IMG/VR virus record: IMGVR_UViG_3300049182_000046
Location: 1-42,597 of that record
From: a virus
Lineage: Duplodnaviria > Caudoviricetes
Strand: one strand, 5' to 3'
Length of the DNA: 42,597 bases
Part shown: in pieces, positions 4,978-40,658 of the stretch
Layout: each line of letters opens with the position of its first letter
Position numbering within the stretch: the first letter of the stretch is position 1
Notes under the pieces: model-generated
Databases searched by the model: none
Told to the model about the DNA's origin: nothing
Seen by the model: only the letters and a program-made list of their open reading frames with translations
Program-made: the position numbers and the translations under genes

Positions 4978-5966
4978 CACTTGGCCTCGGGCTTGGAGAA
5001 CCGCTGCGCCGAAAGCCAGTCGGCGGGGGCCTCGATTTCCATCGTACCGCCGCGATCGGGTTCCGGAACGATGATCTTGCGGTTCTGGTACACCTTCTTG
5101 GCGAGCAGGTTGCGGCCAGTCATTCGGATACGGCCCTGCCAGCCCACGCCCTCGCGCTTGTACTTGCTGGTGTCCACGCCGTTCATCGAGCAGATGTTCT
5201 CGAACGTGATCAGGTCGGTGTGCTTTTCGCCGACGCAGTAGTTGTTGAGCAACTCGGCCAGCCAATCGCCGCAGTGGTTCGGGTGCCCTTCTTCCTTGTA
5301 CTTGGTGCGGTACTTGGACTTCACGACCGAGCCGCCGCCTTCGGTGTTATCTTCCTCAGCGCTATCAGCAGCAGCGTCCCACTCATCATTCCAGTCGAGG
5401 AACCGCTGGTATTCTTCGTCGTCCTCGCCCTCGCTGCTGAATGGGCAGTCTGCAGCGGTGATGCCCTCACGGTAGGCGATAGCGCCGTCCAGAGGCACGC
5501 CGTGTTCGTTGCGCTTGACCACCGGGGTGTCGTCGACCACCGGCTTCGGCTCGGGGTCCTCCTCGAATGGCGTGTCCTTGCTCAGGGTGTCCTCGATATT
5601 GTCGACCACCTCGACGGTGACAGTCGGCATCGTGTCGTCGGACTGGCCCTCCCACTCGATCTTGTTGCCCTTGAGGTCTGCGAGGAGGCCGAAAGGCGTG
5701 GCTGTCTGCTTGCTCAGATCGCCGCTGCTGTGTTCCAGCTGGCCGTTGATCGAGCCTTCGACGGGCACGAACTTGATGTCGCCTTCGGTGTATTCCTTGA
5801 TTTCGACTGCTGCGAGGACCTGCTTGATCGCGTCCTTACCTGACACGCCGTAAGCCAGAACAGCCTTCGACGGGATGAATGCGCGAACGATCGAGCCGTC
5901 AACCGACAGGACGATGCCCTGCTTTTCGGCGGCTTTGATCGTGGAGTGGTGGATGCTGGTGGCCAT
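4977..5966 (-). CDS. hypothetical protein with RMF-like motif and shared 'WQGR-x-RMT' domain (paralog 2 of 3)
   Basis: GGAGAG RBS and own promoter; AYREG..DCPF..W..EW motif; C-terminus similar to 10445..11032. Confidence 0.85.
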   Translation of the reverse strand: MATSIHHSTIKAAEKQGIVLSVDGSIVRAFIPSKAVLAYGVSGKDAIKQVLAAVEIKEYTEGDIKFVPVEGSINGQLEHSSGDLSKQTATPFGLLADLKGNKIEWEGQSDDTMPTVTVEVVDNIEDTLSKDTPFEEDPEPKPVVDDTPVVKRNEHGVPLDGAIAYREGITAADCPFSSEGEDDEEYQRFLDWNDEWDAAADSAEEDNTEGGGSVVKSKYRTKYKEEGHPNHCGDWLAELLNNYCVGEKHTDLITFENICSMNGVDTSKYKREGVGWQGRIRMTGRNLLAKKVYQNRKIIVPEPDRGGTMEIEAPADWLSAQRFSKPEAK

Positions 5967-6016
5967 GTTGCTCTCCGTGAGTTGTGGGGCGAGCCAATCT
6001 CGCCCCATCTGTGTTC

Positions 6017-10444: not shown

Positions 10445-11032
10445 TCAGTGCTGGTGTTTCGCGATCCAGCTCTTCGGGGCCGGGATCGTGGATGCGTCGG
10501 GCAGGGCCAGTTCGCCCGCTTCTGCGACGACGCGCTGCAGAGCCAGACGGCCAGTCATCCGCAGACGGCCCTGCCAGCCCTTCGTGGTGCGGTTCCAGTG
10601 GCTGTGCTTGACGCCGTTCGCGTCGAGGATGGCCTCGAAAGCGGGCACGATCAGCTTGGTCTTCTCGTCCAGAGTGCGGCGGGCCAGTTCGATGGCGAGC
10701 CAGTCCGAGGTCGAGCGGGCCAGAGCCTTGACGGAGACGTCCTTCGGCTTCCGCATGGTGGCGGCGCGTTCCTTGTACTTGGCTTTGTACGTGGAGGCGA
10801 CGACGCTGTTCGGCAGGTCCTCTTCGTCGTCGAGGTCGATTGCGAGCGAGGCTGCGGCGGCAACCCACTGCTCGATCGTCAGGTCCGAAAGCTTCGTGGC
10901 TTCGACCGTCTCTTCACCCTGCTCTGCGGAGAAGACGTAGACGCCGTCTTCCTGCTCGAGGGTGAGGTCCGTGATCATGGGGTATGCTGCGAGTACTGCT
11001 TCGACGATTGCGCGGGTGGTGATGCGGGCCAT
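10445..11032 (-). CDS. hypothetical early protein with shared 'WQGR-x-RMT' domain (paralog 3 of 3)
   Basis: GGAGG RBS before MARITTRAIV; own promoter; C-terminal similarity to 4977..5966 and 165..728. Confidence 0.85.
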   Translation of the reverse strand: MARITTRAIVEAVLAAYPMITDLTLEQEDGVYVFSAEQGEETVEATKLSDLTIEQWVAAAASLAIDLDDEEDLPNSVVASTYKAKYKERAATMRKPKDVSVKALARSTSDWLAIELARRTLDEKTKLIVPAFEAILDANGVKHSHWNRTTKGWQGRLRMTGRLALQRVVAEAGELALPDASTIPAPKSWIAKHQH

Positions 11033-11089
11033 TGGTCTGTCCTCCGTCTGGCGTTGCGTCGGTGGCGTCGTGCCCTCCGATCTGTTTGC

Positions 11090-11118
11090 ATTGTACCACG
11101 GCGGAGAGGCGGTGTCAA
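11090..11118 (-). promoter_or_regulatory. sigma70-type promoter
   Basis: TTGACA-17bp-TACAAT with CGTGG extended -10. Confidence 0.85.
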
Positions 11119-11225
11119 TGGCTTTGGTGTTGCGTCGGACGCAGGTTTGATGTGCACGGAACGCATGGCTCGTGGGGCAGAGTTGGCACGGCGCTTGCAA
11201 GGAGACAGGAGGGCGTTGTGGTGTA

Positions 11226-11462
11226 GAGGCGGCGATACGATGAGGCGTGGCCCGGTGCCACCCATACGACTTATTACCACCGTACCCCAGTCGTTCGGGG
11301 GAGGGAGCTACGCGGGGTTTTTAGGGGGTTACTTTCGATGGTCAGTAGTGGTCCCCGTGTAGGGGGCCGCAGCCGAACGACTGGGACACGGTGGTAACAG
11401 GTCGCATGGGTGGCACCGGGCCACGGGTGCACCGCCCCTGCTTTTCGCCGTATCGCCGCCTC
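11226..11462 (-). ncRNA. long intergenic RNA hairpin (53-bp inverted repeat plus outer 14-bp stem)
   Basis: 11246-11298 pairs with 11373-11425 (5 mismatches, 4 of them G-U on the minus strand); 11226-11239 pairs with 11449-11462. Confidence 0.6.
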
Positions 11463-11583
11463 CACGCACCGCCTTTTCGTGTTCCCTTCGCCCCGCTGCG
11501 CCTACGCTCCTCCGACGCACGGACACAACGAAGCGCCTCCACCGTTCTGGCAGAGCCGCTTCGTGTCGTCGCTTCCGTGGGGC

Positions 11584-11784
11584 TCAGTCGTCGACGTTCT
11601 TCGCTGCGACGACAGCCATCGCGGCTTCGCACCAGATGCGATGAAGCTCTTCCACCGACCTTCCGGGCAGCTTCGCTTCTAGGTCTTCGCATTGGTCCTC
11701 GGGTGCGACGCGCTCGCTGAACGCGCCGATGACTGCGAGAAGGGCTTCATGCTGTTCGTTCGTGAGGTGGAGGGTCTTGGCCAT
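11584..11784 (-). CDS. small acidic early protein
   Basis: 66 aa, preceded by the duplicated 40-nt leader with AAGGA RBS. Confidence 0.8.
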   Translation of the reverse strand: MAKTLHLTNEQHEALLAVIGAFSERVAPEDQCEDLEAKLPGRSVEELHRIWCEAAMAVVAAKNVDD

Positions 11785-12068
11785 TGCGTTCTGTCCTTGT
11801 GTTTCACGTGTGGCGTTCTGTGGGGCTTCAGTTCATCATCCAGAGGAGGCTGCGCTCCAGAGCCGCTTCGATCGTCGGCTGCTTGTTCGTGACGAGGCGC
11901 GTTCTGTCGCTGCAGTACTGTACCATCCAGCGCCCGTCCTTCTGTTCGGATACGACGAAGGTTCCGTTCCAGCCGAGCTTCGCTGCTTCGTCGTGGAGGC
12001 GCTTCTCTGTGGCTTCGATCTTGGCGTTCATTGCGTTCTGTCCTTGTGTTTCACGTGTGACGTTCTGT
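11782..12068. repeat. 40-nt direct repeat (duplicated translation leader) at 11782-11821 and 12029-12068
   Basis: cattgcgttctgtccttgtgtttcacgtgtg(g/a)cgttctgt, one mismatch. Confidence 0.9.
11828..12031 (-). CDS. small early protein
   Basis: 67 aa MNAKIEATEK...; duplicated leader with RBS. Confidence 0.8.
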   Translation of the reverse strand: MNAKIEATEKRLHDEAAKLGWNGTFVVSEQKDGRWMVQYCSDRTRLVTNKQPTIEAALERSLLWMMN

Positions 12069-12301
12069 CGAGGTTCATGCACGGCGCGTTCTGTGGGCTA
12101 CGACGCTGCGAAGCGCTTCCTTTGCGCTCGTCGTGTCTGCGCGTCCCGGTTGCGCCGGGCTTCGCCTCGTTGGGGTTCGGTTGTGCCGGTTCGCCGCCCT
12201 GTTGGCCCTCGCTTGCGCGTGGGTTCGCCGCCCCGGTTGGGGTTCGCTTGGGCGCGGTTTGCCCCGCCCGCCTTTCGGCGTCGGGGCTGGCTTCGCCGCT
12301 G

Positions 12302-12613
12302 TTAGGGCCGGTTGGCGGCCGCTTGCGCGGCCTTCCGGGCTTCGTGGGCTTCCGCCTCGGCTTCGCCGTCGCTGCCGTCGGCGTCGCGGTGCGCTGCCGC
12401 TGCCCGCTCGTGCTCGTCTGCCGCCTCGTCGTTTCCGGCCTCGCGCTGCGCGTCTGCCGCTGCTTCGTGCGCGTCTGCCGCTGCCTCGTGCTCGGCTGTC
12501 GTGTCGCCGCCGTTTTCGTCTGCGGCCTCTGCGCGTTCGCTGGCGGCGGTCGCTGCTGCCGTGGCTTCTGCTGCCGCTGCGCGGCGGGCCTGCTCGTCGT
12601 GGTGGTCCTGCAT
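12302..12613 (-). CDS. first early gene: Ala/Glu/Asp/His-rich 103-aa protein encoded by a U-free reading frame
   Basis: AGGAG RBS at 12622-12626, ATG at 12613, TAA at 12302-12304, upstream promoter; no T in any internal codon. Confidence 0.85.
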   Translation of the reverse strand: MQDHHDEQARRAAAAEATAAATAASERAEAADENGGDTTAEHEAAADAHEAAADAQREAGNDEAADEHERAAAAHRDADGSDGEAEAEAHEARKAAQAAANRP

Positions 12614-12681
12614 TGTCGTTGCTCCTGTCGGTTGTGCCCCGCGCCCCCGGCGCGGGCGGGGCGAGCGCCGCCCCAGAGACA

Positions 12682-12710
12682 AGAATACCACGGCGCGGCG
12701 GGGGCCGCAA
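12682..12710 (-). promoter_or_regulatory. first early sigma70-type promoter
   Basis: TTGCGG-17bp-TATTCT with CGTGG extended -10, the same architecture as the other phage promoters. Confidence 0.7.
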
Positions 12711-12719
12711 TGTATCGGG

Positions 12720-13010
12720 GGTTGTATCGTGCGCGCCGCGCTCTCGCGCCGGGGTTGTGGCCTCGCGCCCCGCCGCCGCTCGCCTCGGGGTTGTGGCGCT
12801 GCGCCGCTGCTCGTCCCCCGTGTCTCGCGCCGGGGTTGTGGCCTCGCCTCTCTGCTCGCGTCGCGTGTCTCGCGTCCCGGTTGCGCTCTGCCCGCCTTGC
12901 TCGCCCCGGTTGTGTCGCCTCGGTCGGTTGTCCTCGCCCCGTCTCTGCGCGTCTGGGTTGTGTCCTCCCCTCGGGTTGTGGCCGCGCCGCCGCCTCGCGG
13001 CCGGGTTGTG
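12720..13010. repeat. array of 10 GGTTG(TG) motifs (CACAACC on the minus strand)
   Basis: GGTTG starts at 12720, 12753, 12789, 12834, 12879, 12908, 12926, 12956, 12974, 13004; the longer unit ctcgcgccggggttgtggcctcgc occurs twice. Confidence 0.8.
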
Positions 13011-13150
13011 CCGCCTCCGGGGCGCGTCGGCTTCGATACCCCCCATGACTATGGGTGCGGCCTAGACTGTGAAGGGGACCCGTTTCGCCGCGCGTCGTAT
13101 CGACAATGTAGTACCCCAGTGCCCCTCCGATTCCACGTTACCACACTACC

Positions 13151-13179
13151 TTGACACCCGCCCACGCGTATGATATGCT
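13151..13179 (+). promoter_or_regulatory. sigma70-type promoter (rightward arm)
   Basis: TTGACA-17bp-TATGCT with TG extension. Confidence 0.75.
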
Positions 13180-13214
13180 ACCTAGTCAACTCGCACAAAG
13201 GAAGGCGCAGTATT

Positions 13215-13586
13215 ATGGACGAAGAATTAGCATTGAAAGTCGAGGTCATCGCATCAACGTGCCACGAAGCGAATCGGGCATATTGCAAGACCATCGGCGA
13301 TTTCTCGCAGCCCCTCTGGAAAGACGCCCCCGAATGGCAGAAAACGTCGGCTCGTCAAGGCGTCGTATTCCACATGAAACACCCCGACGCAGACGCTTCG
13401 GCCTCGCACCAAAGCTGGTATGACGCAAAGGCCGCTGATGGCTGGTCTTATGGTCCCGTCAAGGACCCAGACAACAAGCGTCACCCCTGCTTCGTTCCCT
13501 TCAAGGAATTGCCCATCGAGCAGCAGGTCAAGGACCACATCTTCCGGTCGGTCGTCCACGGAATGCTCAGCTGCATGGCCCAATGA
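13215..13586 (+). CDS. RyR-domain protein
   Basis: HQSWYDAKAADGWSYGPVKDPDNKRHPCFVPFKELP..QQVKD matches the RyR repeat pattern common in phages. Confidence 0.8.
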   Translation: MDEELALKVEVIASTCHEANRAYCKTIGDFSQPLWKDAPEWQKTSARQGVVFHMKHPDADASASHQSWYDAKAADGWSYGPVKDPDNKRHPCFVPFKELPIEQQVKDHIFRSVVHGMLSCMAQ

Positions 13587-13948
13587 CCCACAATTCCGAG
13601 GCCAGTCCGCTCAAGATCACGTTGGAATTGCAAGAGGTGTGGCGCGCTTTCGATGCCTTGCCGAAGATCATTCGTGACGAGATTGCACACGCTGCTTTCG
13701 AATATGACACGATAGCAATTCTCGCGGACTATCGTGCTCACAAGGCGGACTGGCTCCGGGATATATCGGACTATGAATACCTGCAGATCATGAAGGACAA
13801 TTTCCGGCGTGATCTGTATGCGCACTCAATGACGAGGACGGAAAATGGAACATATCGCCTTGCTAAGCGTAAGGTTAGCAAACTTCATGGCCGACAGGAA
13901 TCAGAGCGAAAGGACTTTCAAACCTACCAACCGCGACACCCTCGATGA
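13583..13948 (+). CDS. hypothetical protein
   Basis: ATGA-coupled, 121 aa. Confidence 0.65.
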   Translation: MTHNSEASPLKITLELQEVWRAFDALPKIIRDEIAHAAFEYDTIAILADYRAHKADWLRDISDYEYLQIMKDNFRRDLYAHSMTRTENGTYRLAKRKVSKLHGRQESERKDFQTYQPRHPR

Positions 13949-15055: not shown

Positions 15056-15526
15056 ATGCGGAAAATCATGAACGCTCAATTGCCCCGTGACCTCATTCCC
15101 CTGCCCACCATGCCTTACGACACCCGGCCTGACTACCTGCCGCTGGATATCGAGGAATGCAGGACTGCGATCTGGCGCGGCAATGGCAACGTCACAACCG
15201 CTGCCGACATTCTCAAGGTCACCTCCGCAAGGCTTCGCGCATTTGTCCGGAAGTCCCCCTACCTTTCGGCGCAGCTTGAAGAAGCCAAAGAGCAACTCAA
15301 GGATATCGCGGAGGACAACGTCTACGAAGCCCTGACCGACAACGAGGATAAGGGCCGAAAAGACGCCATGACCCGCTTCGTCCTGCAGGGTATCGGCAAG
15401 GACCGGGGATGGGGTTCCGGCGGCACCAAGGTGCAGGTGAACAATTCCCAAGGTGGCACGGTCATCGTGGGCTGGCAAGATGGCACAGTATTCCAGCCCC
15501 AAGAGCGAGTGATCGACCATGAGTGA
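15056..15526 (+). CDS. terS: terminase small subunit (HTH)
   Basis: GNVTTAADILKVTSARL HTH pattern; immediately upstream of and overlapping terL; start 15056 or 15068. Confidence 0.7.
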   Translation: MRKIMNAQLPRDLIPLPTMPYDTRPDYLPLDIEECRTAIWRGNGNVTTAADILKVTSARLRAFVRKSPYLSAQLEEAKEQLKDIAEDNVYEALTDNEDKGRKDAMTRFVLQGIGKDRGWGSGGTKVQVNNSQGGTVIVGWQDGTVFQPQERVIDHE

Positions 15527-16874
15527 GGCTCCGAGGTACGCAGAAGAGAATACCGTCGACGAGCCGAAGAAAGTCGTAATCCCTTATCGGCCCCGGAAAC
15601 ACTTCATCGCGCTCCACACTTCGACGAAGCGCTGGAAATTTGTTGTCGCCCATCGTCGAGCCGGGAAATCGGTCGCCGCGATCAACGAAATGATCAAGAA
15701 GGCGCTTGAGAATACCCGCCAAGACCCACCACCGAGGTATGCTTATGTCGGACCATCCTTCGACCAGACCAAGGACCTCATTTGGGGTTACCTCAAGCAC
15801 TTTGCCGGTGCGATACCGGGTGTGGAGTTTCGTGAGGGTGACCTCATGTGTATTCTTCCTAATGGCGCTACTATTCGGCTCTATGGCGGTGCAGCTGCTT
15901 ATGAGCGTATGCGTGGCCTCTATTTTGACGGCATCATGCTGGATGAGTTCACGCTCCTTAATCCTGCCGTTTTCTCTACTGTCGTTCGACCTTGTCTTGC
16001 TGACTATCGTGGCTGGGCAATCATTTCCGGTACTTCTAACGGTGATGACCATTTTGCTGAGCTTAGGAACAAGAACATCAACAATCCCGCTTGGGACATC
16101 TTCAGCATCCCGGTAACGGAAACCGACGCGCTTCACCCCGACGAAGTCATCGAAATGACTGCCGATATGTCGCCGGAGGAGTACGCACGAGAAATGCTGT
16201 GCTCTTTCGACGCGCCGGTTGAAGGAAGCTATTACGGCGATATCCTCAACGAAATGGAGGGGCTTGGAACCACCACGGCAATGCCGTACGGGACCAATCG
16301 CGTCCCGCAGATCACGGTCGTTCCGTACCAGCCCCAATTACCCGTCCACACGATGTGGGACCTTGGCATCGACGATGCGACGGCGGTCTGGTTCTTCCAG
16401 ATCGTGGGTCAGGCTCTCCACTTCATCCGATACAAGGAATACGTCGGCAAGGGCCTCCCCGATATCTGGGCAGACATCCTGTCGATGAAGTACGCCGTTA
16501 TGGGTGATCTAATCACGCCGCACGACGTTAAAGCCCGCGAATTGGGCACAGGGAAGTCGCGCTTTGAGGTGTTCACTACCCTCACTGGTGACGTACCACA
16601 GGTAGCGCCTCTACACCGTGTCGAGGATGGAATCGAGGCCGTGCGCGGCTTGCTTCGCATCTCTTATTTTGACAAGGATGAGTGTGCCGCTGGCCTTTCG
16701 GCGATGAAGAACTATCACCGTAGCAAGGCTGGTAAGCCGGTTCACAACTGGGCCTCCCACGGAGCGGACTCTTACCGCACCGGAGCAATGGGCCTCCACC
16801 TCATTTCTAGTTACGGCAATGTCCGTGGTAGAAACGTTTTGTCGATGCGACGCGGCTTGCGCCGTAGACTCTAA
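15519..16874 (+). CDS. terL: terminase large subunit
   Basis: Walker A HRRAGKS, Walker B IMLDE, nuclease motifs WDLG..D and SHGADSYR. Confidence 0.93.
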   Translation: MSEAPRYAEENTVDEPKKVVIPYRPRKHFIALHTSTKRWKFVVAHRRAGKSVAAINEMIKKALENTRQDPPPRYAYVGPSFDQTKDLIWGYLKHFAGAIPGVEFREGDLMCILPNGATIRLYGGAAAYERMRGLYFDGIMLDEFTLLNPAVFSTVVRPCLADYRGWAIISGTSNGDDHFAELRNKNINNPAWDIFSIPVTETDALHPDEVIEMTADMSPEEYAREMLCSFDAPVEGSYYGDILNEMEGLGTTTAMPYGTNRVPQITVVPYQPQLPVHTMWDLGIDDATAVWFFQIVGQALHFIRYKEYVGKGLPDIWADILSMKYAVMGDLITPHDVKARELGTGKSRFEVFTTLTGDVPQVAPLHRVEDGIEAVRGLLRISYFDKDECAAGLSAMKNYHRSKAGKPVHNWASHGADSYRTGAMGLHLISSYGNVRGRNVLSMRRGLRRRL

Positions 16875-16885
16875 GGGATCACACA

Positions 16886-19000
16886 ATGGAATCCATCTTC
16901 TCCAATCTGCCATCCGAGAAGTCGGACATGAGCGCAGACGAATATGCGGAAATCGACAACTACGAAGCCCGCATCAAGGCTTTGATCAGCGATGCCGCTG
17001 ACTTCAACGACTCGGACCTGTCCCCGGAGCGTGAAGAGAACCTCAAGATGTATTACGGGCTGCTCCCGGCATTGTCCCGTGACCCCGATGAGGCTATCAA
17101 CGGCCAGTACGACAGTTACGACGATACTGCCGAGTTCCGTGATGAGGCCAACCGGGCCACTGTGGTTTCGACGGACGTTCGCGATACCGTCATGGCAATC
17201 ATGCCCTCCTTGATCCGCATCTTCACGTCGTCGGAGAACATCGCCGACTTCGTGGCGACCTCTGCTGAGGCCGAAGAAATGACGGAACAGGCCACCCACG
17301 ATGTCCTCTACACCTTCTGGGAAGAGAATCCCGGCTTCTTGATCATCCACACCCTGCTCAAGGATGCTCTGACCGAGAAAATCGGCGTCGTGCGTTGGCA
17401 GACCCACGACAACAAAAAGTACACGGAAAAGGAATTCCTCAAGATTCGCGAAGAGCAGGTCGCGATGATTCTGGAAGAGGCCAATGATATCGGCAACCAG
17501 AATGCCGAGGTCAAGGAAATGGGCAAGCCGGATGCGGATGGCTTCATCGACCGCGTCGTGATCGGCTTCACCAAGTCTGTACCTTCCCGAGAGGTCGTTA
17601 CGGTTCCCCCGGAAAACTTCCGCATTTCCCGCCGCGCTCGCACCATCCACACGGCACCTCTCGTCGGGGTAGCCGAGTTGGTGTCGGCTTCGGACGTCGT
17701 CGAACTGGGGTATCCGAAGGAGTTGGTCCATCAGTACACGGGCAACTACGATCATTACAGCCCCGAGCGCAGCATCCGCAACCCCTCCATCGACTTTTCG
17801 ATCATCGACGATCAACTCGTTGAGTTCGGGGACTATTTTATCCGCATCGACAAGGACGGAGACGGCATCGACGAGCTTCGCCGCATCCGCACGATCGGCT
17901 CGAACTGGGATATCCTCGAAGACGAAATCGTTGACGACATCAACCTCGCTGTGTTCTGCGGTGACCCGCGCCCCCATACAGTCATCGGGGACGCGCTGGC
18001 CGACCTCATCAAGGACATTCAGGAGATCAATACCGCGTTGATGCGAGGCGCACTGGACAGCCTTTCGGGGTCCATGTTCCCAGACATCGCCGTCAACGAA
18101 AACATGGCGAGCATGAACGACATTCTCGCTCCCGGCGTCGGTCGTGTCCTTCGCATGAAGGGCGATCCTTCCGGCATCATCAAGGAAATCCGCCCAAGCT
18201 TCATCGGTCGCGACGTCTTTGAAATGATCGACCGCATGAACATGACGCGCCAGAGCCGTACCGGTATCTCCGAAGCGTCGAAGGGTGTTGACCCGAAAGC
18301 CCTGCAGTCGACCAACCTCATGGGTATCGAGGCCATCGTCACGGGTGCTCAGGAACGCATCGAACTGATTGCTCGCATTCTTGCTGAGACGGGCTTCAAG
18401 GACCTCATGCGCGGCTTGCTCCGCGAAATCGTCCGCGCCCCGAACCGTAAGCGCAGCCTCAAGCGAGAGAAGAAGTGGGTCGAGTACGACCAGTCGATTT
18501 ACGATCCGGACCTGATGGTGAAGGTCAACCCGAGCCTTGGTCGCGGTAACGACATTTCCAAGATGATGACGCTGCAGACCATCCAGCAGACGCAGATGAT
18601 GATCATCGAGCAGATGGGCCTCAACAACCCATTCGTAACCCCGTCCCAGTATCTGAACACGATCAAGGACCAGTTGGCCCTTGTCAACATCCGCAATTCG
18701 TCCCGTTACTTCAACGAAATCACCGAAGAAGTTATGGCTCAGATCAGCGGACCGAAGGAGCCTACCCCGGAGGAGAAGATCGCCACCGCCGAGGTCGAAC
18801 GCGTCAAGGCAACTACCGCTATCGCCATCGACAAGCATCGCGTCGATCGGGAGAAGATGGCGGCGGACGACGATTTCAGGCGCGACAAGCTTGGCCTCGA
18901 CACCCTCGTGAAGCTCGTCACTTCCATGGCCGAGTATCCCTTGGGGGCCGAACTGATCGACGATGCCTCTGCAGTCATCGATGAAAGGAACCAGCCTTGA
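16886..19000 (+). CDS. portal protein (podovirus / P22-like)
   Basis: 704 aa directly after terL; VVSTDVRDTV..IMPSLIRIF N-terminal motif. Confidence 0.88.
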   Translation: MESIFSNLPSEKSDMSADEYAEIDNYEARIKALISDAADFNDSDLSPEREENLKMYYGLLPALSRDPDEAINGQYDSYDDTAEFRDEANRATVVSTDVRDTVMAIMPSLIRIFTSSENIADFVATSAEAEEMTEQATHDVLYTFWEENPGFLIIHTLLKDALTEKIGVVRWQTHDNKKYTEKEFLKIREEQVAMILEEANDIGNQNAEVKEMGKPDADGFIDRVVIGFTKSVPSREVVTVPPENFRISRRARTIHTAPLVGVAELVSASDVVELGYPKELVHQYTGNYDHYSPERSIRNPSIDFSIIDDQLVEFGDYFIRIDKDGDGIDELRRIRTIGSNWDILEDEIVDDINLAVFCGDPRPHTVIGDALADLIKDIQEINTALMRGALDSLSGSMFPDIAVNENMASMNDILAPGVGRVLRMKGDPSGIIKEIRPSFIGRDVFEMIDRMNMTRQSRTGISEASKGVDPKALQSTNLMGIEAIVTGAQERIELIARILAETGFKDLMRGLLREIVRAPNRKRSLKREKKWVEYDQSIYDPDLMVKVNPSLGRGNDISKMMTLQTIQQTQMMIIEQMGLNNPFVTPSQYLNTIKDQLALVNIRNSSRYFNEITEEVMAQISGPKEPTPEEKIATAEVERVKATTAIAIDKHRVDREKMAADDDFRRDKLGLDTLVKLVTSMAEYPLGAELIDDASAVIDERNQP

Positions 19001-22755: not shown

Positions 22756-23202
22756 ATGGCCATCAATTGGACTCAGGTTAATGTTCCGACAATCCTGGCA
22801 GTTGTCGGGGCCGCATGGGGCGTTTTCCAGTATATTGGGGACTTTGACAAGCGCCTTTCTGCGTCGGAACAACAGGCAAAAATAGAGGCTGATTCCAACC
22901 GATCTAAGCTGGTGGATATCACCCGCCTTATCGGTGACGTTCAGTCCGAATTGAGAAGTACTCGGCAGTTTGTCGAGAACGTGCCCTACCGAGTGGGACA
23001 ATTGGAGGCCGGACTAACGGAACAAGGCAGGAGGACCGATAGGATATCGGAAGCCCTGGCAACCAGCCTTGACGCGCTCCGCAAAGATGTGAGCGCGTTG
23101 GGCGTAAAAATCGAGGTGTTGTCCTCCAAGCTGGAGACGAACCCCTCAGGACGTAAGATCAATCTCGTGCTGCCTACTTCCGGTGTTCCACTGGTAAATT
23201 GA
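22756..23202 (+). CDS. membrane-anchored coiled-coil protein (lysis-associated?)
   Basis: N-terminal TM segment VPTILAVVGAAWGVF followed by coiled coil. Confidence 0.65.
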   Translation: MAINWTQVNVPTILAVVGAAWGVFQYIGDFDKRLSASEQQAKIEADSNRSKLVDITRLIGDVQSELRSTRQFVENVPYRVGQLEAGLTEQGRRTDRISEALATSLDALRKDVSALGVKIEVLSSKLETNPSGRKINLVLPTSGVPLVN

Positions 23203-23227
23203 CAGCGCCCCTGCCGCGTGGTATACT
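23199..23227 (+). promoter_or_regulatory. sigma70-type promoter for tail genes
   Basis: TTGACA-17bp-TATACT with GCGTGG. Confidence 0.75.
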
Positions 23228-33876: not shown

Positions 33877-35267
33877 TTCTTTTTCCCAATGTGCTGGAAG
33901 ACGGATTGGAAGACCGACTCTTTTCGCTGTAGTGCAAGCGCCGCCGATTTGTCGAGGGGTGTCCCAATCAGGTCGGCGTACATGTTCCCGCTACCAAGCT
34001 GCCCGATGCGGTGGTTCCGGTCCTCCAGCTGCGAGCGGTCGTCCAGCGAGTACGTGTTCTCGTAGAAGATCATGTTCGTGCAGTGGTCGTCGAGGTCGTC
34101 GAGGCCGAGCAGGGTGTGCCCGTACTTCGCCGCCTTGGTGAGGAAGATGATCCGGCAGTTCTTGTCGGTGTTGAAGCGACGCTTCTCCTCATCGATCTCC
34201 TGCTGCGTCATTCCCCCGACGATGCGGGCGGGCTGCAGTTTTTCGAAGCGGTCGTACAACATCGGCCTGACGACCTTGTGGTTGTAGACGACAATCAGCT
34301 TGCCCCGGATTTCCTCATAGTATTCCACCAGTGCATTGAGGCGGGGGTTCTTGGACGGCTCGACGAGCATGTGCACCTTTTGCTGTTCGTCGATGATGAA
34401 GCCAGCTTGAATTTGCGCTAGCTTGATGTATTTGGTGATGGCCTGATCGACCGTGACGCGCTCTTCGTCCGAAAGCCACAAGACGAACTGCTCTTCCATC
34501 TGTTTGTACATCGACAGCATTTCTGCCGTCATGCGGTATTCACGCAGGGTGTACAGCTTCGGGGGTAGGTCGGTCCACTCCGCCTTCGTGGCCCGGAATA
34601 CATGGGGGTCGATCTTCTGCGCCAATATGTCTTCGTTTTGCGCCCCGATGACCGACTTCATCTTGAAGCCGCCCATCTTGCAGAACGCGTTTTTGAAGGC
34701 ATAATAGACTTGACCCTGTAGATGGCCGATAAACCGCATCTGCGCCCACAGATCGTGTGGACCCTGCGACATAGGCTTCCCCGAAAGGATGCGCCTAAAC
34801 TCGAATAGCTGCGCGATTTCGAGCGCAGCCTTGGTTTGATCCGACCGGTGGTCCTTGAGTTTGATGCTCTCGTCAGCCGCTATGTAACACCGTCGCTCAC
34901 GCGTAAAATCCGCGATGAAGTCCCTAGCGGATTGATGGCGGATGGCTTCATAATTAATAATAAGGTTGGGTCGAGTGTTGAATCCACGACGAAGCGCAGA
35001 CCGTAGATACTTCTCGTTTCCGGACTCCCAGACCAAGGGGGTGATTGGGAATCCAAACTTGTCAACTTCGTCGGCCCATCCCCCTTTGAATGAGTTTGGG
35101 GCGATTGTGACCATTCGCTGGAGATCGTAGGCGACAGCGTTGTCAAGGAAGTCCCCGTAAGTAGTCGATGTTTTTCCAAGACCCTGCTCCATGAAATAGC
35201 CGAAGCCCGTTTTGCCGAAGCTGCGCTTCATTGCTTCGCGCTGCGCGCCTTGTGGTTCCCAAGTCAT
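33873..35267 (-). CDS. SNF2-family (SF2) helicase
   Basis: MEQGLGKT, IAADES, LSGKP, QLEDRNHRIGQ motifs. Confidence 0.9.
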   Translation of the reverse strand: MTWEPQGAQREAMKRSFGKTGFGYFMEQGLGKTSTTYGDFLDNAVAYDLQRMVTIAPNSFKGGWADEVDKFGFPITPLVWESGNEKYLRSALRRGFNTRPNLIINYEAIRHQSARDFIADFTRERRCYIAADESIKLKDHRSDQTKAALEIAQLFEFRRILSGKPMSQGPHDLWAQMRFIGHLQGQVYYAFKNAFCKMGGFKMKSVIGAQNEDILAQKIDPHVFRATKAEWTDLPPKLYTLREYRMTAEMLSMYKQMEEQFVLWLSDEERVTVDQAITKYIKLAQIQAGFIIDEQQKVHMLVEPSKNPRLNALVEYYEEIRGKLIVVYNHKVVRPMLYDRFEKLQPARIVGGMTQQEIDEEKRRFNTDKNCRIIFLTKAAKYGHTLLGLDDLDDHCTNMIFYENTYSLDDRSQLEDRNHRIGQLGSGNMYADLIGTPLDKSAALALQRKESVFQSVFQHIGKKK

Positions 35268-35824
35268 CAACGGCCCCTTTTCGAGTGTCGTTCAGAAATG
35301 TCGTTGGACATGTGTTGCATTAGCGGCCACACAAAAGCACGCCACACCTCAAAAGGCTGTGGAAACCCCGAGTGCTCCATTATGTAGTTGCTGATTTCAG
35401 CTTGGTAGCTCTGGTAGTGATTCTCCACAAACCGGTTGCCGAGCAGCCGCTCTACGCAGATGAAGTGATAGCCTTCCAGCAGGTCTGCCAGCTTGACGAT
35501 GGGGCGGAGGTTTGCGCTGATCACCGGCTTCGGAATCAGGTCTTGATGGTCCTCCACCATCCCCGCCTCGTCGATGTACGGCTTGACCATCGTCGGCGGA
35601 TCGCCCATGACCGCTTCGAGGTTGTCGTGGTTCAGGGCGTATTGGGATAGTTCGTAGAGTTCGTCGATCCGAGTAATACCGAACCAATCTTTGGCGATGC
35701 GGGTAGCCAGCCTTTCGACGTTGAAGCAGTGTTCCGCCACAGACTGCTTCTGGATCGTGTGGAGAACCGACCAACGAGGCACCACCGAAAGGCGGTGGTC
35801 TAGTTCTGTGAAAATGGGCTTCAT
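35267..35824 (-). CDS. datZ: HD-domain deoxynucleotide phosphohydrolase (dATPase, DatZ candidate)
   Basis: RW..QSVAEH..HD..E..GDPPT.VK..KLADLLE, a YfbR/DatZ-type HD pattern; lies in the purZ cluster. Confidence 0.8.
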   Translation of the reverse strand: MKPIFTELDHRLSVVPRWSVLHTIQKQSVAEHCFNVERLATRIAKDWFGITRIDELYELSQYALNHDNLEAVMGDPPTMVKPYIDEAGMVEDHQDLIPKPVISANLRPIVKLADLLEGYHFICVERLLGNRFVENHYQSYQAEISNYIMEHSGFPQPFEVWRAFVWPLMQHMSNDISERHSKRGR

Positions 35825-36015
35825 TTTGCCCTCTCTAACGCTTGCTTTACGTCCTTGAATTTTTCCAACAAGGTCACCATCTTGTGTGCCCCTCGTTCGT
35901 CAAGTGTTTGCAAAGCCGAAAGCCCGAAGGCTATGTTGGTATTGCAGCCCTCAAGGAGGAACTGGTATTGTTCCTCGGTAAGCTCCACCACTCTGTCCGG
36001 GGGATTATTGCTCAT
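35821..36015 (-). CDS. small hypothetical protein
   Basis: 64 aa MSNNPPDRVV..., ATGA-coupled on both sides. Confidence 0.7.
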   Translation of the reverse strand: MSNNPPDRVVELTEEQYQFLLEGCNTNIAFGLSALQTLDERGAHKMVTLLEKFKDVKQALERAK

Positions 36016-36326
36016 TTGCCGCGCTCCACGGCGATATTGGCGATCATCAGCGCGAAGTTGGCGACGTCCGCCGCTTCGAGGATGGTCTTGATGGAGTTGC
36101 CCCCGATTTCCTCGCGGAGTTCGGACACCTCGGCTTCGAGAAGTTTGAAAGCATGGTCGACTGTGTAACCTTCCCACTTACCTTTGTCGGCATTCTTCTC
36201 CAGCTTGTATACCATCGCCTCGACGAAGCGGCGGATATCGTGGGCGTAGTGCGCCATTTCGCCGGGGACGGTTACCGTGAAGCTTATGGCGGGCATTTTC
36301 GGGGTTATTTCTTTTTCGGATAGCAT
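36012..36326 (-). CDS. mazZ: MazG-like nucleotide pyrophosphohydrolase (MazZ candidate)
   Basis: LEAEVSEL..LEAADVANF = ExxE..ExxD; directly downstream of purZ. Confidence 0.65.
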   Translation of the reverse strand: MLSEKEITPKMPAISFTVTVPGEMAHYAHDIRRFVEAMVYKLEKNADKGKWEGYTVDHAFKLLEAEVSELREEIGGNSIKTILEAADVANFALMIANIAVERGK

Positions 36327-36368: not shown

Positions 36369-37421
36369 TCACAGGTATTTCACGTCGTCGCTGGTCGGCC
36401 CACTGCACGTGATGACGTCAAACCACTGCAGCGCGGAATCCCGCACTCGGTCGATCGCTTCCAGCATATTGACCTGCCCCTCTTCATCGAGGTAGTTCAT
36501 GAAGTTGAGGAACACGAAGTTCGCGCCGTTGACATCGACGGCCTCCTGCAACTGCTGCTCGGAGAATGTGAATACGCGACGCACTCTCTGCGTGACGGTG
36601 GTAAGCTCGGGTGTCTGCCCGATCGCTTCCCACGTAGTCTCGGTCTGGTCGGTGTAATGATCGCCTGAGGAAAAGCCGTCGACATTCCCTACCCGGATGG
36701 GGTAGGTCCGCGCCGACACGTAGGTCTTGACGATCAGGTGTGGCGGAATGCGGGCGTCGGCCATGGCTTGCATAACGGTGCACTCCCGGCTCGTCACTTT
36801 AGGATAGAACTCGGAGTTGATGCCGAGCGAGAACCCTTGGCTCACCTCCACGAATACACGATCCGTGTAAGCCACCTGATGAACGTGGCGACGATACATG
36901 CTGACGTTGCTCGGAAGCAGCCCCTCGAAGAAGTAGTTTTGGAAGACGGCCATCGGATCGCGGTTGATCTTGTTGGCAAGCGCCGAACCCGTGCCGGACC
37001 GGGTCCCCGCAACGGCGGCGATGGTCCCCGTCTTTTCGGCCTCCTTGTCGTAGTCCATGATCACCGCTGCCATCGGATCAACGGTGATCGAGAGCATGGG
37101 GTACTTCTCTGCCTCGGCACGGAGAATGTCGAGGTCGATGATGGCTCCCGCCGACAGGTAAACGTGGGGGGCACTTTCGTAGTCCATCAGATACCAGGCA
37201 ACAGCGAAAGTGGGCAGCTGCTTGAGCACGTGCTTTTCTTCGCCGTGATAGAACGTGTGGCCTGAGTTGGGGCCAGCGTTGCTGACGACGAGGTCGAACC
37301 ACTGGTGGCTTTCAAAAGCCTGTTTGGCGAGCCATGCGGCAAGGACACCCTTGCCAGTGGAGCCGAACTGACCGTCGACGAGAACGTGAGCGCCCGAATG
37401 TTCGAACAGGTTGTTATGCAT
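36369..37421 (-). CDS. purZ: PurZ, N6-succino-2-amino-dAMP synthetase (adenylosuccinate synthetase paralog)
   Basis: 350 aa; DGQFGSTGKG (Ser in place of the PurA catalytic Asp), NAGPNSGHT, SQGFSL..YPKVTSR, TTVTQRVRR, FLNFMNY. Confidence 0.92.
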   Translation of the reverse strand: MHNNLFEHSGAHVLVDGQFGSTGKGVLAAWLAKQAFESHQWFDLVVSNAGPNSGHTFYHGEEKHVLKQLPTFAVAWYLMDYESAPHVYLSAGAIIDLDILRAEAEKYPMLSITVDPMAAVIMDYDKEAEKTGTIAAVAGTRSGTGSALANKINRDPMAVFQNYFFEGLLPSNVSMYRRHVHQVAYTDRVFVEVSQGFSLGINSEFYPKVTSRECTVMQAMADARIPPHLIVKTYVSARTYPIRVGNVDGFSSGDHYTDQTETTWEAIGQTPELTTVTQRVRRVFTFSEQQLQEAVDVNGANFVFLNFMNYLDEEGQVNMLEAIDRVRDSALQWFDVITCSGPTSDDVKYL

Positions 37422-37932
37422 TGGCGTCGCCCTTCGGAGCGAGCTTTGCGGCCATTGCAGCGGCAGCATCGGCTTCGATCTTGGCCTCGGCGCGGAGAGC
37501 TTCAAGGTCGACCCTTTCCTGAGCGCTCTTGACGGAAACGGGCGACGCCGGGGGCTTGCCCTGACCGACCGATTCTTCACGCCTGACTTCGACGCCGCCG
37601 AGGCCAGCGGCCAGAGCGGAGTAGCCGACCTTGTCCACGAAGTTGTCAGCGTTCTTCGGATCACCGTGAACGCGACGGGCGGTCTTGAGTAGGTCCATCA
37701 TCAAGGCCACGTCTTCCTGCCGGATGATGATGTCCGGAACGTCGATGTGTTGTGACGGCTGAGGACTATAGTAGGCCATCCGGTTCGTGTTGGTGAGGTA
37801 AGTCGACCAAAAGTCGGCGATCATCTGAAAGCTGTTTTCGGCGCCTCCGTGCTGATTGCCGCGTTCCGACCCAACCACCTTGGCCGCTGCGCCCATCACG
37901 TTGATGGCGTTGTTTGCGATTTTGTTGCTCAT
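37414..37932 (-). CDS. DUF6378-like protein
   Basis: ERGNQHG..ENSFQMIADFWSTYL..DVALMMDLLKTAR..DNFVDKVGYSAL. Confidence 0.75.
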   Translation of the reverse strand: MSNKIANNAINVMGAAAKVVGSERGNQHGGAENSFQMIADFWSTYLTNTNRMAYYSPQPSQHIDVPDIIIRQEDVALMMDLLKTARRVHGDPKNADNFVDKVGYSALAAGLGGVEVRREESVGQGKPPASPVSVKSAQERVDLEALRAEAKIEADAAAAMAAKLAPKGDANA

Positions 37933-38822: not shown

Positions 38823-40658
38823 TTAAATGTTCCAGCCCTTTTTGCCCTTCAACTTCGGCCCGTAGGACGCCTCGGACCAGTGCAGCCCTGAACCCACTTC
38901 GAAAGGGATCGGCACGATCAAGTTAAACTGTGGCTCGTGCGGCACGTTCTCGACGATGCGAACCAACTCGCGGAGCAGGTCCACTCTGCCGGGGTCGCGC
39001 TGCCAGATCAACGAGTCGTGAATGGTCAGCAGCATCTGGATCAGGTCGGGGTAGGCGTCTTCGAACTGACAAGCCCGCAAGAGGCAGGTCTTGACGTGCT
39101 CGCCGCCACTGTTCTGAATGATACGCGAAATCGCTTTGTACGAAAAGCGGGGATCGGGCAAGTAAGCGCGACGACCGAGAATGGACTTGACGTAGCCCCG
39201 TCTTTTCGCCGTCTTTTTGGCGAGGTCCTGAAAGTCCTTGATCCGGGGGAACGCGTCTTCCAGATACCGACGATGGTCGCGGTTGGCTTCGCTGAGGCTG
39301 TAACCCATATGCATCGCGAGGGTCTTGGGGGACATCATCGTCAACATGCCGAGGCCAAGACGTTTAGCGTATTCACGGTCCATTTCCAGAACGTCGGAAG
39401 CTCGCTGGTGGATATCCAACTCCCCGGTTCGGTATCCGTGGATCAGGGCCTCGTCTTCCGAGTAGTGGGTGAAGAATCGCGGCTCCTGCTGCATCGCGTC
39501 GGCCTCTTCGAGGACCATGCCGTGATCGGCGACGACGAGCGGTCGCACAACCTTACCGATGATGATGTTGCGCTTCGGGTAGGCTTGGAGATTCGGCTCG
39601 GAGCAGGAGAAACGCGACCCCGTAGCGCCGTATTCTTCCGATTTCGCTTGATTGAGAATAGCGTGTACGCGCCCGTTAATGTTGTGACTTGAAACCAGTG
39701 GGGCGATGAAGCTAGATTCCGCTTTCTCAAGCTGCCTGATGGTGAGGATATCCTGCCCCATCTGCGTCTTCTCCAACCACTTCTCACGAAAAGACAGCTG
39801 GCCATTGGGGTGCCTCGTGGTTGGATCGGTACGATCGAATTGGTGGTCCTCGAAACCGTTGGCCCGGAACAGCTGCTCCAACTCGCCGTTGGATCGTACG
39901 TTGAAGCCGGGAGGGAATTTCTGCTTCGCCGTTTCGACGGAGTCCTTCAACTGTACCGCCACTTTTTCGGCGTAGTCACCATCTATGCGTATTCCACGGT
40001 GGTGCATGCGGGCGACGTAGGGCAGTAGGTCGCACTCCAGCTGCCACGGAACACGCAGGTTATCCTCGTCGAGGATGCGCTGTTGGGACTTCCACAGTTC
40101 AAGCGTGGACACGCCGTCGCCCGTGGCGTAATCGACTACATCGAAATGGTCCCCCGGCATGCGCCAGAAGTTGCCCATGGACTTGCGATCCGGCATCCCG
40201 CCGAAGCGCTCGGCGATGGCGCGATACAGAGCGTCCCCTTTCTTCTCGGTAACCCGGTGGCGGCGAGCGCAAGCGTCGAGGCTGAGTTCAGTGGTGGTAT
40301 CGTCGATCAGCGTCTCGTTAATCTGGGTATCCTCACAGGGGGACCCGACTACGATGCCACGGCGAAGAGAGCCACGAAGATCAAAACCAAGATGATGGCC
40401 GATTGTGCGATATCCAAGACGAGTGCGCTCAGCAAAGGCGACGGCCAATTCAGCTTCAAATTCGTCCACCATCGGGATATTGCCGCCAGCTTCGTGTCGA
40501 ACTGGAACATAGACGGAGTGCTCCCAATCGGTGAAGACGTACCCCACGATGATGCTCGTGACTTCGAGGCCGTCGGTTTCAGTGTCATACGCCATTTCTG
40601 GCGAGGTGCGGACCATCCGAAGCGCGAGCGACGGGTCGATAATGCCGGTTTTGATCAT
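38823..40658 (-). CDS. dpoZ: family A DNA polymerase with 3'-5' exonuclease (DpoZ candidate)
   Basis: Exo I YDTET, Exo II HHLGFD, Exo III YATGD; motif A DAMQQEPR, motif B REYAKRLGLGMLTM, motif C TIHDS; adjacent to the purZ operon. Confidence 0.8.
   Translation of the reverse strand: MIKTGIIDPSLALRMVRTSPEMAYDTETDGLEVTSIIVGYVFTDWEHSVYVPVRHEAGGNIPMVDEFEAELAVAFAERTRLGYRTIGHHLGFDLRGSLRRGIVVGSPCEDTQINETLIDDTTTELSLDACARRHRVTEKKGDALYRAIAERFGGMPDRKSMGNFWRMPGDHFDVVDYATGDGVSTLELWKSQQRILDEDNLRVPWQLECDLLPYVARMHHRGIRIDGDYAEKVAVQLKDSVETAKQKFPPGFNVRSNGELEQLFRANGFEDHQFDRTDPTTRHPNGQLSFREKWLEKTQMGQDILTIRQLEKAESSFIAPLVSSHNINGRVHAILNQAKSEEYGATGSRFSCSEPNLQAYPKRNIIIGKVVRPLVVADHGMVLEEADAMQQEPRFFTHYSEDEALIHGYRTGELDIHQRASDVLEMDREYAKRLGLGMLTMMSPKTLAMHMGYSLSEANRDHRRYLEDAFPRIKDFQDLAKKTAKRRGYVKSILGRRAYLPDPRFSYKAISRIIQNSGGEHVKTCLLRACQFEDAYPDLIQMLLTIHDSLIWQRDPGRVDLLRELVRIVENVPHEPQFNLIVPIPFEVGSGLHWSEASYGPKLKGKKGWNI

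Follow-up and report, generated by a model that had tools for sequence, protein, structure and literature searches.

Why should one strand of a phage genome lose nearly every adenine at the start of its early genes? The window analysed here, a stretch of 42,597 nt, comprises a near-complete 42.6-kb phage record in which the late arm runs rightward (terL at 15519, portal, capsid, tail and ejection protein) and a leftward arm encodes primase, PolA, helicase and homologues of purZ, mazZ and datZ. Its + strand has 2 A in the 551 nt of 12113-12663, 14 A in the gap at 12664-12726 and 0 A in the 309 nt of 12727-13035; for the two A-poor parts these are exactly the counts from which the original prediction had started. 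The two lone A's of 12113-12663, at 12304 and 12612, are, as had been claimed, the complements of the T of the TAA stop (12302-12304) and the T of the ATG (12611-12613) of the first leftward ORF, and the predicted promoter explains most of the A's in the gap. The A-free runs are 191 nt (12113-12303), 307 nt (12305-12611), 51 nt (12613-12663) and 309 nt (12727-13035) in length; outside the tract the longest A-free run in the window is 56 nt, and runs lacking C, G or T reach at most 31, 31 and 50 nt, respectively. T remained at 140 in 12113-12663 and 72 in 12727-13035 (about 24%), in keeping with the claim that one base is excluded from one strand and that this is not high GC.

Coordinates of features in the window and, where another genome is named, in relatives
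Feature	Position	Strand	Remarks
3' spacer after first early ORF	12113..12301	-	0 T in sense strand (0 A in 189 nt on +)
First leftward early ORF	12302..12613	-	103 aa, Ala/Glu/Asp/His-rich; T only in ATG and TAA
5' leader	12614..12681	-	AGGAG RBS at 12626-12622, 8 nt before ATG
Predicted sigma70-type leftward promoter	12682..12710	-	TTGCGG (12710-12705), 17 nt, extended -10 TG-n-TATTCT (12687-12682)
A-free degenerate repeat array	12727..13035	.	GGTTG core, 45/30/18-nt spacings; upstream of promoter 12710-12682
CCCCCC-N30-GGGGACCC element	13039..13081	.	conserved at early/late junction
Predicted rightward late-arm sigma70-type promoter	13151..13179	+	TTGACA-17-TATGCT
Next three early ORFs	11828-12031, 11584-11784, 10445-11032 (10445..12031)	-	low, non-zero synonymous T
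Near-consensus leftward promoter	11118-11090	-	sigma70 scan
Leftward near-consensus promoters, window	42275, 38807, 11118, 9822, 6665, 6045, 3480, 810	-	sigma70 scan
Rightward near-consensus promoters, window	13151, 14414, 15006, 19147, 23199, 25846, 25912, 39689	+	sigma70 scan
datZ-like HD phosphohydrolase	35267..35824	-	phrog_7076 dATP triphosphohydrolase, E 7e-18; aligns with phiVC8 and S-2L DatZ
mazZ-like gene	36012..36326	-	52% to OH gene annotated nucleoside triphosphate pyrophosphohydrolase; adjoins purZ
purZ-like gene	36369..37424	-	phrog_1211, E 1e-61
Family A DNA polymerase, DpoZ-like	38823..40658	-	best NCBIfam match NF038380 phage_DpoZ_1, 263 bits, below its cut-off of 500 bits
53-nt inverted repeat	11246-11298 / 11373-11425		91% complementary, 74-nt loop, gene-free gap
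49-nt direct repeat	11782-11830 / 12029-12077		92%; covers RBS of two early genes; GTTTCACGTG in each copy (11801, 12048)
First ORF of G026	16836-17192 (L039 8549-8905)	-	Ala/His-rich; distant purZ-positive relative
Junction-facing genes of OH (L001)	49-724	- (of record)	synonymous T 0/41, 0/13; 4/56, 1/29
Small A-poor ORF of G003	42448-42660	- (terL-forward)	sense-strand A 5/207
Small A-poor ORF of G004	5813-6010	- (terL-forward)	sense-strand A 5/192; hairpin at end, before next gene
Small A-poor ORF of G016	22976-23206	- (terL-forward)	sense-strand A 7/225
Small A-poor ORF of L032	232-420	+	sense-strand A 1/183

The tract has an ordered anatomy. A leftward unit of promoter, RBS and ORF could be read from the sequence, which agrees with the claim that the + strand is the template for early transcription; the promoter at 12710-12682 was likewise read from the letters and lies too far from consensus to enter the near-consensus sigma70 scan. 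The sense strand of the leader is T-free from 12663 down, and none of the 58 four-fold or 23 two-fold synonymous sites in the first ORF carries T. The spacer holds three copies of a GGTTG motif on the + strand, and the non-coding tract as a whole holds 12, compared with a mean of 1.4 and a maximum of 6 in shuffled sequences. There was no sign that the 309-nt array is transcribed, lying as it does upstream of the only promoter found. A structured RNA or put-like antiterminator found no support: the array folded no better than shuffles, z for the minus-strand RNA being -0.10 (array) and +0.51, and there was no Rfam match at E<=1. The long ORFs that cross the tract (12075-13046 on the minus strand and 11729-13048 on the plus strand) were rejected as by-products of absent stop codons; the spacing of the GGTTG motifs shifts frame. 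Beyond the tract lie two repeats. The inverted repeat downstream is a candidate origin or terminator, and a similar pair occurs at about 111-240 of a sister-phage contig (L011); the direct repeat carries GTTTCACGTG, which we take to resemble half of a ParB parS site, and a fuller copy lies at the end of the record of Ochrobactrum phage vB_OspP_OH (OH), the closest cultured phage.

To estimate how probable the absence of A would be by chance, we used the A rate of the adjoining early arm, 0.137. At this rate an A-free 189-nt spacer has a probability of 8e-13 and an A-free 309-nt part one of 2e-20, and the probability of no synonymous T in the 103-codon ORF, given its protein sequence, is 1e-7. 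High GC or amino-acid bias alone was ruled out, since T is abundant, A at four-fold sites is unreduced and the protein sequence does not force the result. An assembly artefact was ruled out as well: all of the A-free runs are repeated in the IMG/VR contigs L009 and L013 (99.8-100% identical), contig L010 repeats the tract over the portion that it covers, and a contig from run X4 spanning 12030-13756 does not differ from the window at any position; 8 of the 24 listed runs were compared in this way. The layout recurs in a sister phage (contigs L011 and L012; TerL 81%), whose A-free runs measure 165, 289, 41 and 279 nt; its ORF encodes 108 aa, rich in Ala and His, and the matching slot of its gap holds a consensus-like promoter (TTGACA-17-TATGAT in L011). 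The L011 counterpart of the spacer, at 583-745, is likewise A-free, and that of the array is 279 nt of A-free sequence in 45-nt units. Identity between the window and L011 across spacer, ORF and array is 59-64%, and only 10 of 304 mismatched columns in the tract have an A, compared with 55 of 88 in the right flank; this points to selection against A on that strand. We concluded from these results that the tract is a real, selected feature.

The gene content suggests what that selection may concern. Phages with PurZ-, MazZ-, DatZ- and DpoZ-like proteins replace adenine with 2-aminoadenine (Z), and this gene set, which the original prediction had attributed to the phage, is present. The PurZ-like protein has NF038379 as its best NCBIfam match, at 228 bits and under the cut-off of 300, and contains the GSTGKG motif that, by alignment, is common to the PurZ of phiVC8, S-2L, SH-Ab 15497 and ZP6; datZ and mazZ lie beside purZ. 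The mazZ-like gene had no Pfam or NCBIfam match, and its assignment is by synteny and the 52% identity. We predict from these genes that the virion DNA carries Z. No match to the window DatZ was found by tblastn at E<=1e-4 in the purZ-positive genomes G022, G023, G027, G046-G049 and G061, which may use a divergent or different dATPase.

The tract also has a particular position in the genome. The CCCCCC-N30-GGGGACCC element next to it is present in the window, OH, G001-G006 and G016, including the purZ-negative G006, and we infer that it is a candidate packaging or terminus signal. In 8 of the 29 genomes the record begins at a point 2-5 kb ahead of terL (p=5e-4), and the ends of ZP6, set with PhageTerm, fall at the same early/late junction; together these make a genome end near 13040 likely. 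The 55- to 127-nt end repeats of the records look like assembler overlaps.

If a Z-free tract were an obligatory means of starting infection, close purZ-positive relatives should carry it, and the original prediction had named its absence from them as grounds for abandoning the idea. It was absent from all 15 of the other purZ-positive family genomes, in which the longest A- or T-free runs were 46-86 nt, so that 1 of 16 has a long tract. It was also absent, as expected, from all 13 purZ-negative family genomes (longest run 44-86 nt), and in 12 cultured purZ phages, OH included, the longest A- or T-free run was 43-73 nt. Among 157 capsid-related loci a run of >100 nt occurred only in the window phage and L011/L012, whose contigs end before the purZ region; L032, one of the terL loci, has a run of 171 nt with reversed polarity. 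In its strict form the prediction holds that host RNA polymerase (RNAP) cannot read Z templates until the 103-aa product has modified RNAP or the DNA. The first transcription unit does have template A only at promoter, start and stop, and the first ORF of G026 is similarly Ala/His-rich and T-poor: it has T at 14 of 351 positions, almost only where the amino acid demands it, the next gene is nearly as clean, and G026 possibly made an independent move to the same T-free extreme. Against this stand the 15 relatives, the seven leftward near-consensus promoters besides 11118 that lie over ordinary, A-containing templates, and the behaviour of plasmids: in one report, transformation by fully dZ-substituted pUC19 stayed within two-fold for most E. 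coli strains and was 46- to 63-fold lower in two Mrr-positive strains, for which its authors left transcription-coupled repair open (PMC12944874). The 103-aa product had no Pfam, PHROG or NCBIfam match; it aligned with the L011 ORF (52%), P0001 (65%) and the G026 ORF (28%); a protein search gave one homologue, and tblastn gave no match in the other genomes tested. Feature matches in the ESM Atlas (0.81-0.82) and helical-bundle structure matches are leads only. The product is small and acidic; as its homologue in L011 lacks this acidity, the two do not have DNA mimicry in common. We therefore regard the strict form as very unlikely.

A weaker form of the same idea, that template A is avoided in degree, could be examined in codons. 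Genes were called with a home-made caller and kept if they had an RBS-like site or more than 100 codons; the family set comprised 29 records of >38 kb with both TerL and capsid matches (G001, G002, G044, G050, G051-G054 and G067 were left out, and G012 served as an outgroup). Over the first 400 early codons, the ratio of synonymous T to its level in late genes was 0.11-0.60 in 16 of 16 purZ-positive genomes (0.22 in the window and 0.11 in G026) and 0.78-1.23 in 13 of 13 purZ-negative genomes. For spans of 200, 400, 800 and 1500 codons the ratio was 0.23, 0.41, 0.51 and 0.61 with purZ and 0.9-1.0 without it, and the rank correlation of the gradient was positive in 16 of 16 purZ-positive genomes, against a median of -0.07. 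Compared with the remainder of its own strand, early T was lower in 15 of 16 purZ-positive genomes and 1 of 13 purZ-negative ones (p<0.05). In the window the gradient continues past the tract, with four-fold T of 1/30, 3/33 and 10/113 and two-fold T of 0/13, 2/13 and 0/28 in the ORFs at 11828-12031, 11584-11784 and 10445-11032. Depletion was found in all 15 codon boxes and before all four following bases, with four-fold A unreduced (ratio 0.98), and thus reflects neither GC3 nor a single motif. The bias follows the sense of transcription, since the junction-facing genes of OH, of which the terminal one is rightward (T 0/41 and 0/13), are also low in T. Rightward genes inside the early zone had four-fold T of 123/853, against a late median of 0.27. 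A uniform replication-strand bias was rejected, as it does not give a within-strand gradient or low T in rightward early genes, although where purZ is present the + genes immediately ahead of terL are themselves mildly depleted (median about 0.75). Template-A avoidance at the early head, then, tracks purZ as a gradient in the 29 family genomes and 7 outgroup podoviruses; as an obligatory tract it does not.

How far this association can be read depends on the phylogeny. On a quick IQ-TREE tree purZ changes only twice, so the family test amounts to about two contrasts and its p-values overstate independence; both were in the expected direction, as G061, purZ-positive among negatives, had a ratio of 0.58 and G006, purZ-negative with PolA, one of 1.11. 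Outgroup Z podoviruses gave 0.38 (phiVC8), 0.40 (K300), 0.53 (ZP6), 0.41 (G012) and 0.48 (BUCT555), and outgroup non-Z podoviruses 0.90 (P26218) and 1.22 (Mvi-Yong). PMBT28 and Kokobel2 showed little gradient, and the 12 Z and 8 non-Z outgroups were not told apart by a position-blind minimum-window test (p=0.20). These points leave some room for an effect of clade, host or mutation bias, with the tract arising from a low-complexity gene and an amplified A-less repeat: purZ labels change so rarely, the array is indeed made of repeats, host or lifestyle may differ between clades, and, since GC is lower and late T higher where purZ is present, the denominator accounts for part of the ratio. However, T in the first genes is also below that of the other genes on their strand, about 40% divergence has left the tract without A, T-free codons are not dictated by the protein sequence alone, and host-matched phage pairs differ in promoter excess (below). 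We consider this explanation barely probable. As an observation in its own right, GC is 0.55 in purZ-positive and 0.60 in purZ-negative family genomes and median late-gene four-fold T is 0.27 and 0.14, respectively, as if T:Z pairs relaxed the pressure toward GC in purZ-positive late arms.

Because the family-wide signal lies in codons and not in intergenic DNA, selection on the RNA has to be weighed: U-poor first messages might escape a U-directed host ribonuclease or be translated faster, with purZ a mere marker of lineage. Sense-strand T was not depleted family-wide in intergenic DNA (1221 T/1325 A vs 779/905, p=0.28) or just downstream of promoters (p=0.28), and related phages make A-free messages, which resembles avoidance of a base at the RNA level. 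However, depletion was not confined to one motif, so escape of a motif-free mRNA from a sequence-specific RNase was rejected; every codon box and next base is affected, and the tract reaches zero T. Capsid genes are biased oppositely, with high T and low A at four-fold sites, and ordinary translational optimisation was rejected on this ground. Selection on RNA also leaves unexplained the link to purZ seen in G061, G006 and the outgroups, the promoter excess, and the array upstream of the promoter. It is unlikely, in our judgement, while keeping an appreciable chance.

A second signature also tracks purZ. The window has 16 near-consensus sigma70 promoters, with 4.2 expected; family genomes have 12-24 each if purZ-positive and 1-7 if purZ-negative, and the median excess over local shuffles is 11.6 and -1.8, respectively (p=6e-6). 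In the outgroups the excess was 7.5 in 12 Z phages and -0.1 in 8 non-Z phages (p=0.015). S-2L, Ghobes and G012 showed no excess despite purZ, and the non-Z phage PSASB_03 showed one. Host-matched phages differed: Theresita from BubbaBear and Coltrane, and SH-Ab 15497 from Loki.

Taken with the gradient, these results lead us to favour, with somewhat more confidence than doubt, the reading that template A has been purged from the early head in a purZ-linked way, most completely in this tract, because template Z hinders host RNA polymerase. Incoming virion DNA with Z would first be read by the unmodified host enzyme, and Z in the template strand would slow or stall it, as a graded cost per base and not as a block. 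This cost would be heaviest while one newly arrived genome is all there is to transcribe, and the genome end near 13040 would enter first. The phage could compensate by purging synonymous T from its first genes and by adding promoters, which would give many short transcription units; most relatives would have thinned out synonymous T, and the lineage of the window would have removed it altogether. Each of these elements, Z in the virion, the first-entering end, the per-base cost and the compensation by short units, is inferred. A kinetic cost appears to fit better than the miscoding that had also been proposed, because misreading of Z as if it paired with C would leave the protein unaltered at third positions and cannot explain a bias there. 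Note that the transcription argument covers the 309-nt array only if RNAP enters from the genome end. Several further results count against the favoured reading: the few purZ changes on the tree, the presence of a long tract in only one purZ-positive family genome, the undepleted T between genes and after promoters, the position-blind test, the exceptions to the gradient and to the promoter excess, the small ORFs of reversed polarity in some relatives, the transformation by dZ plasmids and the acceptance of Z by most polymerases. The direction of the original prediction was thus probably right, even though its obligatory bootstrap was not borne out.

Polymerase studies bear on such a cost. One report cites a block of T7 RNAP and human Pol II by a single Z, of up to 92%, and itself measured yields 35% and 85% lower with Z coding templates (PMC10786293); another states that most DNA and RNA polymerases accept Z and that sigma factors are sensitive to it (PMC8342488). 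In the literature searched we found nothing on a bacterial multi-subunit RNAP reading template Z. A 2022 study by Tan et al. in ACS Chem Biol is said to have had the blocking Z on the transcribed strand.

The stronger T:Z pair, with its three hydrogen bonds, allows a different explanation, in which RNA content would set the strength of the RNA-DNA hybrid: a U-free, A-rich RNA would leave its template easily, an A-free RNA would form lasting R-loops, and the role of the tract would be to adjust how RNA is released, or some strand-specific process at the end of the genome (entry, priming or packaging), and not polymerase bypass. This would cover both polarities, the T-free ORFs of the window and G026 and the A-free ORFs of G003, G004 and G016; extreme-polarity ORFs occur in 5 of 16 purZ-positive and 0 of 13 purZ-negative genomes (p=0.048). 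Immediately after their promoters, purZ-positive genomes are richer in A (0.315 vs 0.20, p=0.005, with only 8 promoters in the negatives), and the array abuts the candidate terminus signal. Set against this, the argument is a thermodynamic one, no rightward promoter was found left of the tract, and G003 and G004 have not retained the terminal segment's strand bias. We hold it to be improbable. The small A-poor ORFs of G003, G004, G016 and L032 each lie behind a near-consensus promoter and an RBS, and three of them begin MLWxxCRSALV, after which that of G016 diverges; such ORFs with an A-free sense strand could possibly be an R-loop, attenuator or adenine-sensing unit.

Returning to hindrance by template Z, we can also propose a bolder version, which is rather unlikely. 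Z genomes would be poorly legible to host RNAP, and this lineage would boot at its first-entering end in three letters: RNAP would read about 600-900 Z-free bases into a U-free message, and the Ala/His-rich helical product or the GGTTG array would then let transcription and entry continue into Z-containing DNA. Were this true, the T gradient and dense promoters would be a general signature of modified-base genomes, readable from sequence. Even under the graded reading the two may flag such genomes from sequence alone and may guide the design of genes for expression from ZTGC DNA, and, as both signatures track purZ, they make testable the question of how host RNAP handles fully Z-substituted phage DNA.

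The tract appears to be an undescribed feature: literature searches, and term look-ups in passages of PMC13128860, PMC8065100, PMC7139368, PMC8515928, PMC10504480, PMC12884076 and bioRxiv 2025.10.22.683976, gave no account of such a tract, strand or codon bias or gradient. What we add to the locus is a set of purZ-negative controls, a gradient at the level of codons and an excess of promoters. The nearest measured precedent is the block of transcription by 2,6-diaminopurine (Tan et al. 2022, as cited in PMC10786293), which gives a measured cost of Z to RNA polymerases; it differs in that it was obtained with T7 RNAP and human Pol II on engineered DNA and not with a bacterial RNAP or a phage genome. 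The nearest genomes are the Z-genome phages OH, phiVC8, ZP6, S-2L and SH-Ab 15497, which have the same Z-gene set as the window phage. OH also has the same gene order, with TerL and PurZ each 64% identical, and a graded avoidance of T in early genes and an excess of promoters also occur in OH, phiVC8 and ZP6; the 12 cultured purZ phages differ in having no A- or T-free run beyond 73 nt.

Other phages shape the end that enters first. The leading end of T7 (the first about 850 bp, with gene 0.3/Ocr) and the first-step-transfer DNA of T5 are free of restriction sites and are DNA that enters first, is transcribed first and is shaped by the host, as the tract may be; they resemble it in their similar length and in a first product that, in the window, is small and acidic. 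They avoid short restriction sites on both strands, whereas the tract drops a whole base from one strand. ACA-less messages under MazF are mRNAs free of cleavage sites and are alike in that a message is written without the target base pattern; in contrast to them, the tract has no motif specificity and extends into non-coding sequence ahead of the promoter, and its bias goes with purZ. Exclusion of a whole base from one strand differs in kind from known phage motif avoidance.
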